Positions 7,301 to 18,578 of a stretch of 24,305 nucleotides of DNA are shown piece by piece; the first letter of the stretch is position 1, and the number at the start of each line of letters is the position of its first letter. The notes under the pieces are model-generated. The model was not told the origin of the DNA. It did not search any database and was given only the letters and a program-made list of their open reading frames with translations. The stretch is taken from the NCBI GenBank assembly GCA_003144275.1, contig NJBF01000046.1:1-24305 (forward strand). Reading direction: 5' to 3'. The translations under genes were made by a program, and so were the position numbers. The stretch comes from Candidatus Heimdallarchaeota archaeon B3_Heim. Its GTDB lineage: Archaea > Asgardarchaeota > Heimdallarchaeia > Hodarchaeales > Hodarchaeaceae.

Positions 7301-8162
7301 GTTTAATTTCTTAGAATTAGCTCTTCCGGTAGCTATTGCAATTCTTCTGATGAGTAACACTTCCATAAGTACTGTGTATGACTCCAAGAAAGAAATTTCA
7401 ATATTTACATCCTTAGGCGTGTCTCCTTCTAGTATTCTTGGACTGTTCATTGCTGAATTTCTTCTACATGCCATAATCGGATCTATGGTAGGTTATTCAG
7501 GAGGGATAATAGTTATTAGATTTCTTTCATCTATCGACTTAATTTCTGAATCTTTTTCTGTAAATTATTCTTCTCGAGCTGTTATAATTACATTAATCTT
7601 TAGTGGACTAGGGATGCTTGTGGGACTTGTTCTTCCCCTTCGAGAATCAAGTTTGAATTCATTACCTTCCCAGAAGCGATCATGGGAGATCTCTACCTTA
7701 CCTGAAGGTGATGGATCCCAGTGGAACATCTCTTTACCATTTGTAGCCTCGAGTGAGGATGAAGTAGAAGGAATTCTCGCATTTTTGAACGAATTTCTCT
7801 TGATTTTTGAATCAGAAAATGTTGGAGGCCCTTTTTTCGTGAGTAGTCCTATAATCTTCAAGAATCAACCTGGAATAGAAAAACATCTCACTACAACAGT
7901 TTATCTCGCCCCCTTTGATATGGGGATAATTCAAACCGTAGATGTATACTCTTATTTAGACACGGTAAAGAATCATTGGAAATTCGTTATTAAATTAAAT
8001 CGAGTAGAGGGGGTACTGCAGGCTTGGCAGGCCTTAGTCAAGCGATATATCGGAATTATGAGGCAACAATTTCTTCTCTGGAAGGGATTATCCAGAGAGG
8101 ATAAAATGGCTAGTACAGAACAGTTTAAGAATCTTATTTTTTCATTATCGCCGGATACTTAG
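4392..8162 (+). CDS. Multidomain membrane protein: N-terminal anchor, PA + M28-like (degenerate) peptidase domain, beta-sandwich region, FtsX-like permease TM module, C-terminal soluble domain
   Basis: SRVTGYPG; PA-like LVYGGSG...GAKGVIY; M28-like SAYFDS..PGADEACGIATLLELIR..FLALSGH; FtsX signature TVYDSKKEISIFTSLGVSPSSILGLFIAE; about 8 hydrophobic helices in total. Confidence 0.8.
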   Translation: MHLRKILASQYFAYAVFISFFIGLTVALVIKSPDYATTETVTSDKSTISSVENVKTVIQELIDYEYYSDQITTHYFQNIRNHIGNFSSFGSRVTGYPGYELSIDYITDFFQSQNLTEVQTLSYPHLVPLDRGTRFTLGGKNYSAHALAPNSVHTSKIPSGGLSGMLVYGGSGKYSDLDGKKIDGAIVVLEFNSQHNWINVASLGAKGVIYLTPDKTNRYEAETKSIDIPLEFPRIYIDNKTLSGTMRTLSTQVNQTVTIYSDIEWERIDAKNVMGILPGLDDDIIVLSAYFDSSSCVPALSPGADEACGIATLLELIRIMKDNKVVPKKTLMFLALSGHNQAAAGAREFVSSNYDRLNRQGGIKLFLSLDLSSSTKIIGLNPYGYLYKFKLRYTTGNNLFYRLKSIGDIFLQYASEIRMTTDHSFSVDSYVNIQDIFEDIAPFTFVGDQEPFIASNVLGLSLFSAQSPRNLYNTPFDLPSYLQFNQLEAQVIYSICALVQLVNDTDLDNYLDLQPKGFSVKPNMHVGFGVITGSCKIYNESSLWTDNVANALIRITSRDPNTNSPGVYSYYTQTDEEGGFTVNGVSSSQPDNPLEFDVEAYTFNSEGKLVQANNLGPFRVFFDQSNKLVTQKITINPTVFNCGTLGLFDISHPYSRYISSQSLTYQVLNPESRASLQYYGYKNLDSVSLVFLPPHTRSSIIGTFPNNVLGIYATNSSADLLRGYGFQVEKGEFKNLGISTFITSKDLQSKTQTFISWYTSHNIYDQRVNETFQELSLQIEIINSLLQNYDYSEALQEMNQARLMSFTALRQARNIITDGSNTALLFAFFLIPFSLTLSNFLFDLNSEKRWLIVSCIIYFVAFGFFYLIHPGFKIAPQLGLTLIGFINVISVLIIFYMLFHESTGFLVQIRKNTLGAHFIKSNQTSVVLIAIKTGIQRMKKHKPRTILNLSAVALLSFSLTLLTSTSSQTGFNFLELALPVAIAILLMSNTSISTVYDSKKEISIFTSLGVSPSSILGLFIAEFLLHAIIGSMVGYSGGIIVIRFLSSIDLISESFSVNYSSRAVIITLIFSGLGMLVGLVLPLRESSLNSLPSQKRSWEISTLPEGDGSQWNISLPFVASSEDEVEGILAFLNEFLLIFESENVGGPFFVSSPIIFKNQPGIEKHLTTTVYLAPFDMGIIQTVDVYSYLDTVKNHWKFVIKLNRVEGVLQAWQALVKRYIGIMRQQFLLWKGLSREDKMASTEQFKNLIFSLSPDT

Positions 8163-8178
8163 TTCTTATGTTTAAACA

Positions 8179-8204
8179 GGAACAGAAATTATAGATTTTG
8201 TTCC
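8179..8204 (+). terminator. Possible terminator hairpin downstream of the M28/FtsX gene
   Basis: GGAACAGAAAT-TATAG-ATTTTGTTCC forms a ~10-bp stem with one G.U pair and one bulge, 17 nt after the stop codon. Confidence 0.3.
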
Positions 8205-8355
8205 CTATTCCCCTTAAATATTACTGATATTTGTGTTCAGAATTCAAAGTATCAATTCTAGCAATTTGTAGATAAGTTAGGAAATATTTAATTATGATGC
8301 AGTGTTAACTCTAGCTACTCCTACTAGAAAATCTAGATTCTTTTGTGATGGTCTT

Positions 8356-9105
8356 ATGATAGGCATTGAAATTACGAGTAAAAACAGTGGAATTCCTCTT
8401 TTTACCCTTGAATTTCGGCCTGATACTCTTTTCAATAGTGAAATCAGAGGAGGGTTAATTACTGCGATCATGCAAGTTATGGGGGAAACGTTTGGTCCAC
8501 AGGAGACTAAAATTGTCAATTACGGTCATTATAATGCCATCCTAGTTGAGGGGAAATATGTCTATGGGATGCTCTTCACTTTTCAATCGGGTCCAATCTT
8601 TGAGCGATTTATTTCTGACTTAATTGACGATTTTGAAGAAAAGTTTCAGTCAGAGTTAGAAGATACGATATCAGGTAAGACTTTAGTCCATCAAGAACAC
8701 TATGATTTCGCAGTGGAATGTGCTCAAGCCTATAAATCCTTTTCACATATCGACGTCACAAACTTAAGTAAATTATTGGACTCTATCCACAGCTATGGCG
8801 ATCAAATTTTTGAGAATGTGCTCATTTACACACGTCCAGAAATGAGTCAAATTTACACTCATTTAATTGATGAAAAATTTAGTGTGTTCAGTGATGAGGT
8901 TTCTAAAGCACTTAAAACAGTTCTGGATTTATCCAATCGTACTTCTTTCCCTGTTGAGAATTTTCAAATAGCTTTATCCCGAGATTTTCATTGCCTTATG
9001 TTCAATGCCTTCCCTTATTCCGTTATTGTTTTTGTAGGTGAAAAGGATTTAGAGCTGACTCACTGGAGAATTAGTGAGATTAAAAACGATTTTGCTGAAG
9101 GGTAG
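8356..9105 (+). CDS. Longin-like domain protein with a second longin/roadblock(profilin)-like domain
   Basis: MIGIEITSKNSGIPLF...GGLITAIMQVMGETFG...YNAILVEG..YGMLF...ISDLIDDFEEKF follows the bb-a-bbb-aa longin pattern typical of Asgard proteins; the second half (ENVLIY...VSKALKTVLDL...FHCLMF...VIVFV...EIKNDF) has a similar small alpha/beta topology. ATG 8356 is preferred over the ORF-track start at 8302. Confidence 0.6.
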   Translation: MIGIEITSKNSGIPLFTLEFRPDTLFNSEIRGGLITAIMQVMGETFGPQETKIVNYGHYNAILVEGKYVYGMLFTFQSGPIFERFISDLIDDFEEKFQSELEDTISGKTLVHQEHYDFAVECAQAYKSFSHIDVTNLSKLLDSIHSYGDQIFENVLIYTRPEMSQIYTHLIDEKFSVFSDEVSKALKTVLDLSNRTSFPVENFQIALSRDFHCLMFNAFPYSVIVFVGEKDLELTHWRISEIKNDFAEG

Positions 9106-14617: not shown

Positions 14618-17167
14618 TCAAGTGAGAAATAAGATTTCCCCTTTTCCACTCAACTCTAAAAATTTGCTTTTACCAGTTTGGTGTTCAACGAGATACCCTC
14701 TAGATACAAGATGTTTTATCCTTTTTCTAGCTGTTGGCCTACTTATCTTTAATTCCTCTCCAATATCCGAATATGAAGGTTTAACACCAACACCATTCTG
14801 CTGAAATACGTACTTTAAGATTTGAAGAAATTCTTCTGAAAAATTGGCTATAAAACGAGGTTCTAGAGCGTGAGTTTCTTTTTCTATAACTGCTATCTCT
14901 CGTTCTGTCAAAGTAGAAGTATCTACAGACAAAAGTACGACTAGATTATTGAAGTAAGTCATTTCGTTTAGTTTAAAAATAAATTTAGTGACAATTTCAA
15001 AACCCTCTTTCAAAAATAAATATTCCAAACGATCAAATAGGAATACTGACTTTCGAGGGGTTTCTTTCATTATATTCAAAAGAGTCTCAAAGTTATTTTT
15101 CTCAGTTAGTTGGAAAAATGCGATTTTTTCCTTAATATGATTAGTAAAATCCCTTTTTGGAGTACGAGAAACAATAAATCCATTATATCCGACTTTGGTG
15201 AGATCCTCGAAAACAGTTTGCGACAACCTGGGCAATTTTTCTTTTATGAAATACATTTTACCATCTTCAACCTTGAATTTAAGTAATTGAGATTTTAGTT
15301 CCTCTTCTTTTTCTTTTAGAGCCGAAATATCTTCGATCATCGCAAGAAGAAAGCTTGGTTCACCTTTCTCGTTTTTTAGTAATGTTACAGTAGTTTGAGC
15401 CCATAAAAAATCTGAATTTTTCTTAAGATACCGTTTTTCTGTCTGATAGATTGAATTTTTTCCTTCTATTAATCGCTCGACAAATTTGATATCCCTTTTC
15501 ACATGTTCAGGGTGAGTGATTTCTGGAAAAGTTAATTGAGTTAATTCTTGTTCAGAATATCCAAGCATATTACAAAATACTGCATTTACTTTACTAAATT
15601 GATAGTTTAAATCAGTTAATAACATTCCTATCGGTGCGTTTTCAAAAATGGATCTGAATTTTTCCTCACTTTCCCGTAGCTCCTCCTCCATCATTTTTTG
15701 TTCAGTTATATCTGTAGATATAAGCCCTAGTCCATCACCCACCTTGAAAGCTTTCAAAGAAAATCGTACATCCCCAAAACGTTTGCTAGGCACTGTTCTA
15801 TCTGTGGTCATTGGTTTACCAGTTTCTACGACCTGTTTATAATCTACAATATTTGTAGGATGAAGAAGAAACTTTTCAATATTCACCCCTAGTGGGAGGT
15901 TTTTGTCATAGGCTTTTTTAGTCAATTTATTCGAGGCTCTATTGGCGAGTACAAGGTTTAAATTTGAATCCCAAAGTGAATACGAGTCTGTGGCCGCATC
16001 CAAGAAACTCCTAAGCATTTCTTCATTTTTACGTATTTCTTCCTCCATTTTTTTACGTTCTGTAATATCTGTTGTTATTATTCCCAAACCTTCTCCCATC
16101 TTGAAAGCTTTCTGAGAAACGATTATTTCTCCGTATTGTTGCGGAGGTCCAATTCTATCTGCAATAAAAGATACTCCAGTTTCTAGTACCTTCTTGTAAA
16201 AATTTATGTCCTCAGGGTTGGGATGGAATTCTGCAATATGCTTACCCAGAATATTTTCCTTTTTTTCTTCTCTGGTGTATTTTTCTAATCCCGCTGGATT
16301 GACATCTAGTAACCTTAAATTTGAATCCCAGATAGAAAAGGAGTCAGTAGCGGCATCCATAAATCCTCTAAGTCTTTCTTCGCTTTTACGGATTTGTTGT
16401 TCCATTATCTTTCGGTCTGTAATATCTCGGATAATTGTAAGTATTTGAATAACCTTTTTCTGATCCTTATCGAAGATCGGAATTTTCTTCGTCTCGGTAA
16501 AATATACTACACCTCTAATTTCTGTTTGTTCTTCAGAGCCTATGATTTCGCCTCTTTTAAAAACAGATTGATACTCAATTTCAACTTGTTTCGGAAGAAA
16601 AGGAAAGGCCTCAGCCACTTTCTTTCCAATAATAACTGGATTCAGTTTTAAGCTTCTTAACCAGGGGTAAAAAGCGTGATTTGTAAGAATAATTTCATGG
16701 TCCTGATTTATGACGTGAATTGGATCTCCGATAGAATTGATAGCTGTTCGATATTGTTCTTCTGACGCCTGCATTGTCTTCTCCATCCCAATTCGCTCTG
16801 TAACATCCCGAGCGATTCCTAAATATCCAATAATTTTCCCTTGTGAGATTTGTGGAGTTGCTTTTGATTCAAGAATTACTAGAGACCCATTCTTTGTTGG
16901 AACACGCGCAGAATATGGAGGAGGAATTTCTCCACGAATTGTTGCGCGAAATCCTTCCTGTACTATCTCGGAATCCTCTGGATGTACTAATTCTAAGAAA
17001 TGCTTACCGATCCATTTTTCTCTGGACCATCCAGTTATTGTTTCAAATTCATGCGATATAGAGGTTATGAGACCTTCACCATCAAGAGTGAAAATGATGT
17101 CACGGATATTATCCCAAATATATTGGAATAATTCTTCAGAAAGTGGTTTATTTGTCAAATAGAACAA
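14618..17167 (-). CDS. One-component sensor/regulator: 5 PAS/PAC domains + DUF835 (degenerate KaiC/RecA-like) + C-terminal winged HTH
   Basis: Five PAS units, each ending in a DIT/DVT/DIS motif (RDVTER, RDITDRK, TDITERK, TDITEQK, EDISALK); DUF835-like GYNGFIVSRTP...VFLFDRLEYL...VLLSVDTSTLTEREIAVIEKE; wHTH PSYSDIGEELKISRPTARKRIKHLVSRGYL; TTG start with a GGAG RBS. Confidence 0.85.
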   Translation of the reverse strand: MFYLTNKPLSEELFQYIWDNIRDIIFTLDGEGLITSISHEFETITGWSREKWIGKHFLELVHPEDSEIVQEGFRATIRGEIPPPYSARVPTKNGSLVILESKATPQISQGKIIGYLGIARDVTERIGMEKTMQASEEQYRTAINSIGDPIHVINQDHEIILTNHAFYPWLRSLKLNPVIIGKKVAEAFPFLPKQVEIEYQSVFKRGEIIGSEEQTEIRGVVYFTETKKIPIFDKDQKKVIQILTIIRDITDRKIMEQQIRKSEERLRGFMDAATDSFSIWDSNLRLLDVNPAGLEKYTREEKKENILGKHIAEFHPNPEDINFYKKVLETGVSFIADRIGPPQQYGEIIVSQKAFKMGEGLGIITTDITERKKMEEEIRKNEEMLRSFLDAATDSYSLWDSNLNLVLANRASNKLTKKAYDKNLPLGVNIEKFLLHPTNIVDYKQVVETGKPMTTDRTVPSKRFGDVRFSLKAFKVGDGLGLISTDITEQKMMEEELRESEEKFRSIFENAPIGMLLTDLNYQFSKVNAVFCNMLGYSEQELTQLTFPEITHPEHVKRDIKFVERLIEGKNSIYQTEKRYLKKNSDFLWAQTTVTLLKNEKGEPSFLLAMIEDISALKEKEEELKSQLLKFKVEDGKMYFIKEKLPRLSQTVFEDLTKVGYNGFIVSRTPKRDFTNHIKEKIAFFQLTEKNNFETLLNIMKETPRKSVFLFDRLEYLFLKEGFEIVTKFIFKLNEMTYFNNLVVLLSVDTSTLTEREIAVIEKETHALEPRFIANFSEEFLQILKYVFQQNGVGVKPSYSDIGEELKISRPTARKRIKHLVSRGYLVEHQTGKSKFLELSGKGEILFLT

Positions 17168-17209
17168 TCTCTCCGATATTTCTATGAAACTTATTCCCTC
17201 GAAGGAGTG

Positions 17210-17217
17210 TTATAAAA
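17210..17217 (-). promoter_or_regulatory. Putative TATA box for the PAS regulator
   Basis: TTTTATAA on the minus strand ~43 nt upstream of the TTG start, consistent with a short leader containing the GGAG RBS. Confidence 0.45.
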
Positions 17218-17303
17218 TGATCGGCCTCCATTTTACAATAAATGGGGATCGTAGAGGAATTTGTTAAATGTAAAAGAGGAAAATGATAAGAGGGGGGAGG
17301 GAG

Positions 17304-17467
17304 GGAAAGTCAGCAATTTAAAAAAACTAAGTTTTTTGGTTCGCCGACTCTCCATCGTATACATATTTTTCTTTCAATCAGCCTTCGGATGAAATCCGAA
17401 TTACTGAATCGAATTTGTGGGTTTACCAGCGCTTCCAAAAATAAAAATTTTCGATCCGCTCTAACCC
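17304..17467 (-). ncRNA. Putative unclassified structured ncRNA (three long hairpins)
   Basis: Minus-strand stems: GGGUU/AACCC + AGCG/CGCU + UCGAAAAU/AUUUUUGG (17467-17419); UUCGAU-CAGU/GCUG-AUUGAA + UUCGGAU/AUCCGAA (17413-17373); GGAGAGUCGGCGA/UUGCUGACUUUCC + AAAAAAC/GUUUUUU (17353-17304). All non-Watson-Crick pairs within the stems are G.U on this strand. TATA box 24 nt upstream. Confidence 0.6.
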
Positions 17468-17490
17468 TATTTATGATATGACTTTCCATT

Positions 17491-17498
17491 TATATAAA
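17491..17498 (-). promoter_or_regulatory. Putative TATA box for the structured RNA
   Basis: TTTATATA on the minus strand ends 24 nt before the first G of hairpin 1 (17467), the expected archaeal TATA-to-TSS spacing; the element also reads TTTATATA on the plus strand (17488-17495). Confidence 0.5.
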
Positions 17499-17888
17499 TA
17501 TATAGCAACAGATGTAACAAAACAGGGAAAACAAAATCGCCTCTATGACGTTATTTCCCCTTTTGTTTAATTTCCCATATTAGTAATTCTAAGACTAAAA
17601 ATAATAAATCGAAATTAGAAAGTTATTAATTGTTTCTCTTGGAATCATGATTTTGAGCTTATATTACTGATTTGTAATTACCTAGATAGTATTAGGTTAC
17701 TGCATTATCGTTTCCTACGCTTTTTACATCCCAGTAATTCTACTTGTTAGAAAAACCTCTATTATCGGAATGTGAATGATTCTTAAAACCGTTGCTTAAA
17801 TGGTAATGGCGTGGTTGGCGTATAAATATTATTTTAACTAGTAACCTTAGCCAAAAATTACATAAATGCATGAAAATCACTCTAGCTT

Positions 17889-18578
17889 ATGTCATTTTTT
17901 ACTCCATCTTCACCAGAAGAAGCCATGGGAACACCAGAGCAGCGTGAGTCTCAAATAAGCAATATTATATCTTATCTTGGCGTATCAACCATTGGTGAAC
18001 TCATCTGGGTTCAACGTACTTTGGAACGGAATTTTCAAGACAAGCAACTTGAATCCGATGGTAAAGATACTAATATTTACGAGCAGAAGAAGCAGGAAGT
18101 TGAACAATTATTAACCGATCATCAATCGATGATTTCCAAGATTGCCAATTTGCAAGATCAAAAAACATCTGTTCAAACCCAAGTGGAGGGACTCAAAACA
18201 AATCTTTCTATGCTCTCATCTGAAAAAGAAGCAGTTGAAACAGAACGTGATTCCCTTTCCCAGGAATTGCAGAGAATAGGTACTCTTTATGAGGAATTAA
18301 CAGGAAAACAGGCAAATCAAGAAGAACTGAGAGGAATTTTGAGCATTTATATCACTCTCATGGAGGATGTTTTTTCGGGGAGAGCTCATTTCAAAGTGTT
18401 ATCTATTGTACACGGCGAAAAAGAAGTTTGGAAGCGTCAAGAACTTGTTAAAAGCACAGGAATTTCAGAGATCAAACTCAGATCGGTCCTTGGCGATTTA
18501 GTTAGAGCGAAAATGATTTTCTATAATGAGGAAGATGCTACTATAAGACTTATCAAACGCCTTTCTACTCTGGATTAA
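17889..18578 (+). CDS. Coiled-coil protein with C-terminal winged helix-turn-helix
   Basis: Heptad-rich region aa ~60-145 (EQKKQEVEQLL...LSQELQRIGTLYEEL); wHTH pattern FKVLSIVH..WKRQELVKSTGISEIKLRSVLGDLVRAKMIFYNEEDATIRL; TATAAATA at 17821 upstream. Confidence 0.75.
   Translation: MSFFTPSSPEEAMGTPEQRESQISNIISYLGVSTIGELIWVQRTLERNFQDKQLESDGKDTNIYEQKKQEVEQLLTDHQSMISKIANLQDQKTSVQTQVEGLKTNLSMLSSEKEAVETERDSLSQELQRIGTLYEELTGKQANQEELRGILSIYITLMEDVFSGRAHFKVLSIVHGEKEVWKRQELVKSTGISEIKLRSVLGDLVRAKMIFYNEEDATIRLIKRLSTLD

Follow-up and report, generated by a model that had tools for sequence, protein, structure and literature searches.

What is encoded in the gene-free gap upstream of a PAS-domain sensor gene in an Asgard archaeon? 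The gap lies in a stretch of 24,305 nt from contig NJBF01000046.1 of Candidatus Heimdallarchaeota archaeon B3_Heim, analysed here at its full length and called the window; the source genome (G000) comprises 3.95 Mb at 36% GC. An initial annotation of the window had proposed a stand-alone, promoter-driven and structured non-coding RNA (ncRNA) on the minus strand, with three consecutive hairpins (H1-H3). This proposal is supported by the promoter, the fold and the orthologues: ~17468-17280 of the minus strand is a stand-alone small RNA gene of ~190 nt with its own strongly conserved TATA promoter. Moreover, H3 and the invariant C-rich tail behind it are the defining parts of an RNA family that had not been described before and that occurs across Heimdall-group Asgard archaea, among archaea the closest relatives of eukaryotes known. 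The conserved working part of the RNA is this 3′ module, namely a freely drifting but always-paired long hairpin, then the single-stranded and invariant CCUCCCUCCCCC, then oligo-U. A pyrimidine/U-rich tail had been recorded initially and is indeed present; that tail and H3 together form the conserved, family-defining part had been overlooked. Judged by Rfam 15 and literature searches, this is apparently the first conserved small RNA family for Asgard archaea, and its invariant 12-nt C-rich tail provides a clear, testable functional element.

A family of hairpin-and-tail RNAs

Copy number, one of the checks proposed with the initial annotation, has two answers. The whole element is single-copy in the source genome, with orthologues in four congeners at 96, 83, 78 and 78% identity, and only the 3′ module (H3 and tail) recurs. 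At least four copies of the module were found in this genome, on contigs C25, C10 and C80 (pattern and covariance model) and, as a weaker copy, on C43. In an oriented alignment of the five orthologues, H3 and the tail, CCUCCCUCCCCCC, are conserved to the extent that, of the 75 nt which run from AUACGAUGG across H3 up to CCCUCCCUCCCCCCUCUUA, a single loop position varies, in one of the five species. Past the tail, similarity stops abruptly, and conservation is lacking from there up to the PAS gene. H1 and H2 drift among the congeners, to 78% identity. H1 was recovered by independent folding in four of the five orthologues with altered inner stems (AGUG/CACU, GUGC/GUAC), while the consensus fold of the five contains two pairs of H2 changed on both sides; despite the drift, both hairpins refold in four of five species with changed stems.

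With 43 occurrences, the exact 15-mer CCTCCCTCCCCCCTC is present in 19 of the 22 genomes of the genus and in none of the 378 other Asgard genomes, the reversed-pattern control giving one match in 400 genomes. A search of 185,579 species genomes with the exact 17-mer returned hairpin-bearing matches exclusively from Hodarchaeota/Heimdallarchaeota, the others being chance matches in GC-rich bacteria. Viral contigs contained 84 exact matches to the 15-mer, none of them preceded by a hairpin. The 41 distinct copies in the genus, at 2-6 siblings per genome, have many different stem sequences and one architecture. The 5′ base of the hairpin is marked by U-G; the outer stem spans 11-13 bp and is separated by a small internal loop from the inner stem, in which an A-run occupies the 5′ and a U-run the 3′ side, and the tail directly follows the closing C. 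TATA-like boxes are located upstream of all copies inspected, and a T4-T6 run lies 5-15 nt past the core in most copies.

A covariance model was built from 23 copies, and the window scores 83.9 bits with it. Other families of the same class and two Asgard families beyond it yielded homologues with 28-46 bits (E 1e-5 to 1e-10); matches at E ≤ 0.01 are present in 52 of the 83 class genomes, which outside the genus of the window mostly have a single one. In related genera the RNA mostly consists of a promoter, ~10-15 nt, the hairpin, CUCCCUCCCCC(C)U and a U-run, ~85 nt in total. In the genus of the window, the module was duplicated into siblings and gained lineage-specific 5′ hairpins, here H1 and H2. 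The C43 copy (Table 1) represents a subfamily whose longer hairpin includes a conserved UUCUUGGUCUUCUCUCAAG segment, and it lies just past the stop codon of a neighbouring gene, on the opposite strand. The only 12-nt complement of the tail, at ~42900 of this contig, was first taken for a partner RNA with a G-rich 5′ leader and is the antisense of the same copy.

Covariation in related genomes had been suggested as a check, and it proved to be strong for H3. In a MAFFT alignment of 13 copies, 94.4% of the cells were paired compared with 46-49% in slid controls, and twelve pairs were changed on both sides. With 54 distinct sequences, in an alignment which was fitted to the covariance model and therefore leans toward structure, 96.7% of the cells were paired (51-61% in slid controls), the covariation score was 0.773 (0.11-0.18 in slid controls), and 11 of the 12 outer pairs were compensated with up to six pair types. 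Columns 113-124 of this alignment, i.e., CCUCCCUCCCCC, are invariant across several families except for one to six single-C gaps in columns 121-123. In 33 of 40 copies the C-rich strand folds more stably than its complement (74 G.U pairs overall), and the model gives this strand 70-92 bits, compared with 22-26 bits for antisense matches, which cover the hairpin only. The compensatory changes and the G.U pairs on one strand indicate selection on an RNA.

Over the window, Rfam 15 gave no match at the gathering threshold, and at E ≤ 10 only chance matches to microRNA and small nucleolar RNA models with 9-16 bits; a description of Asgard small RNAs (sRNAs) of this kind was not found in literature searches. 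The initial impression that the RNA is no tRNA, 5S, SRP or RNase P RNA and no known riboswitch agrees with the search. The covariance model could seed an Rfam family and improve the annotation of Asgard genomes.

Most paralogues of the genus carry a second hairpin with covarying stems, AUGA-UGAAAC-GAGU, which is missing from the RNA of the window. Tandem G.A pairs close its hexaloop, and it stands outside the tail hairpin. By its sequence, it is K-loop-like and possibly an L7Ae site.

The RNA gene of the window and its promoter

RNAfold analysis of 17470-17290 (minus) returned the three hairpins exactly where they had been placed at first, with the tail unpaired. The energy of the minus strand is −56.8 kcal/mol compared with −37.8 ± 4.0 kcal/mol for 200 dinucleotide shuffles (z = −4.73), none of which is as good; an energy within the shuffled range, named at the outset as an argument against an RNA, was not found. 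The plus strand reaches −42.6 kcal/mol (z = −1.02), and its poor folding confirms the strand asymmetry remarked upon earlier, the non-Watson-Crick pairs being G.U on the minus strand and A.C on the plus strand. The tail, C-UCCC-UCCCCCC, is unpaired in the minimum-energy as well as the centroid fold. It is composed of two tandem UCCC motifs and contains the anti-Shine-Dalgarno pentamer CCUCC.

An H/ACA-like pseudouridylation guide had been hinted at, as in this genome ACA follows H1 and AGAAAA follows H2. The ACA is found in this genome only, the four orthologues having AUA, UAA, UGU and AAU at its place. H1-H3 contain no K-turn or K-loop (no tandem G.A beside a 3-nt bulge or loop), and their internal loops, 3-6 nt per side, offer no large pseudouridylation pocket ~14-16 nt from the ACA box. 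Behind the conserved H3 stands CUCCCUCC, which is C-rich and not ANA, and no Rfam H/ACA match was returned even at E ≤ 10. Archaeal H/ACA guide sRNAs do share one to three consecutive hairpins in a short RNA with the element; nevertheless, their ACA/ANA box, K-turn or K-loop and large pocket are absent or unconserved here, and a guide function is scarcely credible.

A small protein deserves equally little credence. The window does contain a 59-aa open reading frame (ORF; 17489-17310) and a 40-aa frame from an ATG at the base of H3 (17355). From the conserved ATG, however, the ORF extends over 59, 24, 20, 12 and 12 aa in the five orthologues, which means that the element is not coding, and this first ATG lies between the TATA box and the predicted transcription start. 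The frame in H3 is kept only where the nucleotides are invariant and stops at 12 codons in paralogues.

The gap, initially put at 720 bp, measures 721 bp, and the minus-strand TATA box called there was confirmed by reading TTTATATA at that position (Table 1). A promoter block of ~75 nt, which includes the TATA box and AAATGGAAAGT, is nearly invariant in the alignment of the orthologues, and the sequence farther upstream of the repeats is not conserved. The transcription start was placed from the usual archaeal spacing between TATA box and start; AGGGU(U/C/A)AG at this place is conserved in the five orthologues, and GGGGUUAGG forms the beginning of the PAS-linked RNAs in the genomes G006 and G002. 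The repeat block is a candidate transcription-factor array, and its assignment to a particular factor can be suggested from its genomic context. PAS-linked promoters throughout the genus have repeats of the TTTCCAT / TTGCCAT / TTGCCATA type at 10-11 bp spacing, abutting the TATA box, and the three-repeat array is a candidate binding site for the adjacent PAS-DUF835-HTH protein.

Table 1. Coordinates of the RNA gene, its surroundings in the window (plain numbers) and related features elsewhere (given with genome, contig or locus handles).
Feature	Position	Strand	Remarks
Intergenic gap	17168-17888		721 bp; flanked by the PAS gene (minus, 14618-17167) and an ORF on the plus strand (17889-18578)
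Promoter block, three direct repeats TTTTCCCTG / TTTGTTACAT / TGTTGCTATA	17557-17499	minus	repeats 10-11 bp apart; conserved in 5/5 orthologues
TATA box TTTATATA	17498-17491	minus	read directly; invariant in four congeners with adjoining AAATGGAAAGT
Predicted transcription start (A/G of AGGGUUAG)	17468-17466	minus	~23-25 nt past the TATA box
Hairpin H1	17467-17419	minus	outer GGGUU/AACCC, inner GAGCG/CGCU, apical A-run/U-run stem; minimum-energy fold
Hairpin H2	17413-17373	minus	UCAG/CUGA and UUCGGAU/AUCCGAA; minimum-energy fold
Hairpin H3	17353-17304	minus	family-defining, terminal; 13-bp outer stem (three G.U pairs), small internal loop, AAAAAAC-UUA-GUUUUUU apical stem
C-rich tail C-UCCC-UCCCCCC-UCUUAUCA	17303-17284	minus	single-stranded; invariant family core CCUCCCUCCCCC
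T4 runs	17283-17280 and 17275-17272	minus	probable oligo-U terminator and 3′ end; read directly
TATA-like box TTTTATAA ahead of PAS gene	17217-17210		read directly
PAS x4-5 / DUF835 / HTH gene	14618-17167	minus	syntenic partner across the genus; not part of the RNA
Three-repeat promoter layout, equivalent position	L137, L138, L140, L141, L145, L146, L149, L191, L179, L193, L197, L199		
Outward-facing pair of copies	G009:C1:3983338-3990194 (L191:1823-1905, 8629-8711)		likewise G017:C324, G014:C376
K-loop-like hairpin	L191:8575-8605		equivalents in L179, L193, L154, L188, L173, L162, L189, L161, L201
Fourth family copy of the source genome	G000:C43:42789-42949 (L321:490-650)		divergent; tail ACUCCCUCCCCCCAUUAUU
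~365-nt repeat	C8:18885-19245 (L345:485-845), C44 ~7900-8270 (L346), C34 ~60600-60930		
~365-nt repeat, further copies	C45 ~150-480, C47 ~51900-52330, C88 ~109500-109750		

Genomic neighbourhood of the copies

Two loci of the family are syntenic across the genus, one beside metG (locus 1) and one, to which the window belongs, beside the PAS-DUF835-HTH gene (locus 2). At locus 1 the RNA is divergent from metG, a gene for a ubiquitin-conjugating-enzyme-like protein lies downstream, and the promoters have a TACGAA..TTCGTA palindrome in place of the three-repeat array. At locus 2 the RNA and the PAS gene stand in tandem in the clade of the window. The product of the latter gene matches PAS families, DUF835 (1.7e-14) and, at its C-terminus, the winged-helix family HTH_24 (1.6e-4; 21.6 bits, compared with a cut-off of 21.9) in Pfam, and it contains no kinase domain. 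Neighbouring genes in other genera (BpsA-HTH, unknown proteins) comprise no common partner.

The position of the RNA on the same strand as the PAS gene and 117-135 nt upstream of it, in the clade of the window and in several other species of the genus, raised the question of whether it serves the PAS-DUF835-HTH mRNA in cis, as a 5′ leader, attenuator or switch in which the T7 run of H3 and the T4 runs past the tail could serve as conditional stops. Two observations argue against such a role: in the genomes G009, G014 and G017 the RNA is divergent from the PAS gene, and the sibling beside metG has a convergent gene ahead of it and no downstream gene on the same strand. Homologues in other genera likewise have unrelated or convergent downstream genes. 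Moreover, the TATA box attributed to the PAS gene by the initial annotation is present as TTTTATAA, so that the gene has a TATA-like box of its own, and the sequence between tail and gene is not conserved. The alternative pairing of GAUGGAGAG with CUCUUAUC, suggested earlier as a switch for the PAS gene, amounts to 5 bp at best with no compensating change, and a T4 run follows the tail. We regard a leader as very improbable.

Siblings of one genome are more alike than orthologues; in G009, for example, they are 89% identical over 83 nt. Either gene conversion or co-evolution with a common partner is suggested by this likeness. In G009, G017 and G014, two copies face outward at 6.3-6.7 kb from each other, with the convergent metG and PAS-DUF835 genes between them; this clade has the two syntenic loci side by side, and the outward-facing copies, 87-89% complementary over 83-90 nt, appear homogenised. 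Such pairs, at 6.5-6.8 kb in the scan with the 15-mer, had first prompted the idea of a mobile element. Taken with the presence of at least four module copies per genome, the sharp end of conservation past the tail and some extra copies that adjoin methylase or nuclease-like genes, the likeness of siblings might suggest a mobile or DNA-level element, i.e., a repeat resembling a miniature inverted-repeat transposable element (MITE), an integrase attachment site, or, on the G-rich strand, a G-quadruplex or pause element. Nevertheless, the synteny of the two main loci, the promoters of the copies and their compensatory differences with G.U pairs on one strand make this most unlikely, as do the G009 pair, which flanks the housekeeping metG and the PAS gene with no transposase, and the viral-contig matches, all of which lack a hairpin. 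Membership in a MITE family was rejected in particular, as 2-6 copies per genome with different stems at syntenic places are found rather than many near-identical dispersed ones.

Possible roles of the C-rich tail

The reading we favour, tentatively and as falling somewhat short of probable, is that of a sibling trans-acting sRNA whose exposed double-UCCC tail pairs with G-rich ribosome-binding sites. By analogy with known C-rich sRNAs, the tail would be the seed, which would pair with GGAGG / GGGAG ribosome-binding sites of target mRNAs and block the initiation of translation, while the hairpin would protect the 3′ end and stabilise and present the seed. The siblings would share their output, and since they carry different promoter elements, a single regulon would receive different signals through them; for the copy in the window, the likely regulator would be the PAS sensor encoded next to it. 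The source genome provides the setting. Its 16S ribosomal RNA (rRNA) ends in GAUCACCUCCU, and in 1,451 well-delimited ORFs, anchored at the start, G amounts to 24-38% at −14..−7 with maxima of GGAG, GAGG and GGTG at −12..−11. This G-rich peak ahead of the starts indicates that Shine-Dalgarno-led initiation is in use. The spacing of ATG past GGAGG genome-wide gave no signal, a test which is swamped by matches in coding regions.

Should the tail prove to be an anti-Shine-Dalgarno seed, Archaea would have evolved, independently, a post-transcriptional control of ribosome-binding sites through C-rich sibling sRNAs; to our knowledge, such control has so far been known from Firmicutes and alphaproteobacteria. 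The newly cultured Hodarchaeales would then have their first handle in the form of a regulatory RNA, and a sibling with the PAS-DUF835-HTH gene and the three-repeat promoter would make a ready sensor-promoter-sRNA circuit. On this model the C-rich-seed kind of sRNA is already known, and the family, the 3′-tail architecture, the depth of conservation and the host lineage are new.

Several known systems were compared. The functional class of C-rich-seed sRNAs is recognised by exposed UCCC/CCUCC in a single-stranded region, and this is what the tail displays. The UCCC motifs of LhrC, RsaE and RNAIII bind Shine-Dalgarno regions (PMC4132741). LhrC1-5, RsaE/RoxS and RNAIII of low-GC Gram-positives resemble the element in having exposed and redundant UCCC in a low-GC genome (PMC4132741, PMC2790875), here as a tandem pair. 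LhrC, in addition, has sibling copies and is controlled by the LisRK sensor, where a PAS sensor is suggested here. These RNAs differ from the element in their bacterial intrinsic terminators, their unrelated sequence and their domain of life, and Shine-Dalgarno binding was established experimentally for them, whereas it is deduced in our case.

In the Cuckoo RNAs (alpha-r14 / CcsR / RSs0680 / NfeR1) of Rhizobiales and Rhodobacterales (PMC4615179), the sole conserved sequence is likewise a C-rich motif resembling the anti-Shine-Dalgarno sequence, CCUCCUCCC there and CCUCCCUCCCCC here. Further common traits are stems that vary via compensatory changes, one to several siblings per genome, a modular number of hairpins, and subsets of copies that keep their genomic neighbourhood (PMC4615179). 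However, CCUCCUCCC is placed in the loop of each of 2-4 adjacent hairpins, whereas the motif of the Asgard family occurs once, in a 3′ single-stranded tail, and its hairpin loops are A/U-rich. The hosts are alphaproteobacteria and Asgard archaea, respectively, and there is no sequence or covariance-model similarity (no Rfam match). The resemblance is an analogy and not shared membership. Among archaea, Methanosarcina mazei sRNA41 masks ribosome-binding sites (Buddeweg et al. 2018, as cited in PMC5867862). It is an intergenic sRNA and a proposed translation repressor acting by such masking, and in this it is similar; it differs in being euryarchaeal, restricted to a genus and provided with identified targets, the ACDS operons. 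It has no sequence in common with our family, no invariant C-rich 3′ tail and no sibling family.

A number of results weigh against an mRNA-pairing tail. Exact and G.U-tolerant searches of the genome revealed no complement of the tail of at least 13 nt besides the family loci, complements of 9-10 nt were no commoner than for the reversed control, and duplex-energy scans of the whole genome and of start regions, with inspection of the top sites, gave no convincing target, the best duplex sites not being located at credible start codons. The start region of metG has no G-rich ribosome-binding site. The 12-13 nt that are invariant throughout the class exceed the 5-6 nt which Shine-Dalgarno pairing needs, and fit a protein site or a fixed RNA partner equally well. 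H3 itself contains a T7 run (17327-17321), and T7 runs are archaeal stop signals, so part of the transcripts may end before the tail. In the clade of the window, 5′ AGGGUUAGAGCGGA can pair with the tail in an alternative fold that would mask the seed, both partners being invariant.

Transcript data are to be read with equal care. Of the sequence words sampled, each sequencing run contained a small share. Contigs from four metatranscriptome libraries of four studies match 17286-17357/17360 with 0 differences and diverge upstream into H2-like sequences of other species; since they differ upstream of H3, they derive from several species. These contigs give neither strand, level nor true ends, and DNA carry-over is possible. 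In total they cover 17286-17360 and, by one contig, 17481-17508 of the window. The latter segment lies upstream of the predicted start, which means either DNA in that library or a start farther upstream. The lack of coverage of H1 and H2 is uninformative, since this region is different in the relatives from which the contigs derive. Three of the contigs stop 5-10 nt past 17286, in or just past the T4 run, a weak hint at the 3′ end.

The failure of complement and duplex searches to reveal an mRNA target would also be expected if hairpin and CCUCCCUCCCCC tail were a fixed protein site, i.e., a ribonucleoprotein (RNP) scaffold or decoy, a possibility that we consider rather unlikely. Such an RNA might copy the 3′ end of 16S rRNA, as a helix-45-like hairpin with an anti-Shine-Dalgarno tail, and titrate a factor of the Nob1, Dim2/Pno1 or KsgA type; a KH-type poly(C) binder, or L7Ae bound via the K-loop-like hairpin of the paralogues, are other versions. 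A protein site is favoured by the class-wide invariance of 12-13 nt and of the U-G at which the stem has its 5′ base, by the unchanging polarity of the inner stem and by the conservation of the AUGA-UGAAAC-GAGU hairpin with its tandem G.A pairs in most paralogues, and the 16S 3′ end is indeed a hairpin followed by ..CCUCCU. The tail of our family, however, abuts its hairpin with no GGAUCA linker of the kind present in 16S rRNA, and the resemblance to helix 45 is topological only. Furthermore, no gene of a partner protein consistently adjoins the RNA, the neighbours differing between genera, and the copy in the window has no K-loop-like hairpin.

An improbable relative of this idea is that the RNA has a housekeeping role in the Heimdall lineage and is no ordinary stress sRNA. 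As an independent mimic of the 16S 3′ end, it would compete globally with ribosomes for Shine-Dalgarno-led mRNAs or titrate a Nob1/Dim2/KsgA-type factor. If such a mimic existed, it would represent a layer of control over translation or ribosome biogenesis in the closest archaeal relatives of eukaryotes, and thus in a lineage that would be on its way to giving up Shine-Dalgarno initiation.

Apart from the family itself, the source genome contains a non-coding repeat of ~365 nt in at least six copies (Table 1), upstream of unrelated genes, one of them rpoB-like, and with no Rfam match. Its G-containing strand folds better (−96 compared with −75 kcal/mol) and carries GGGAGGGAGG, a perfect 10-nt complement of CCUCCCUCCC of the tail, which is paired to an internal pyrimidine tract in the fold. 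The repeat could be a target of the C-rich tail or an unrelated mobile or leader element.

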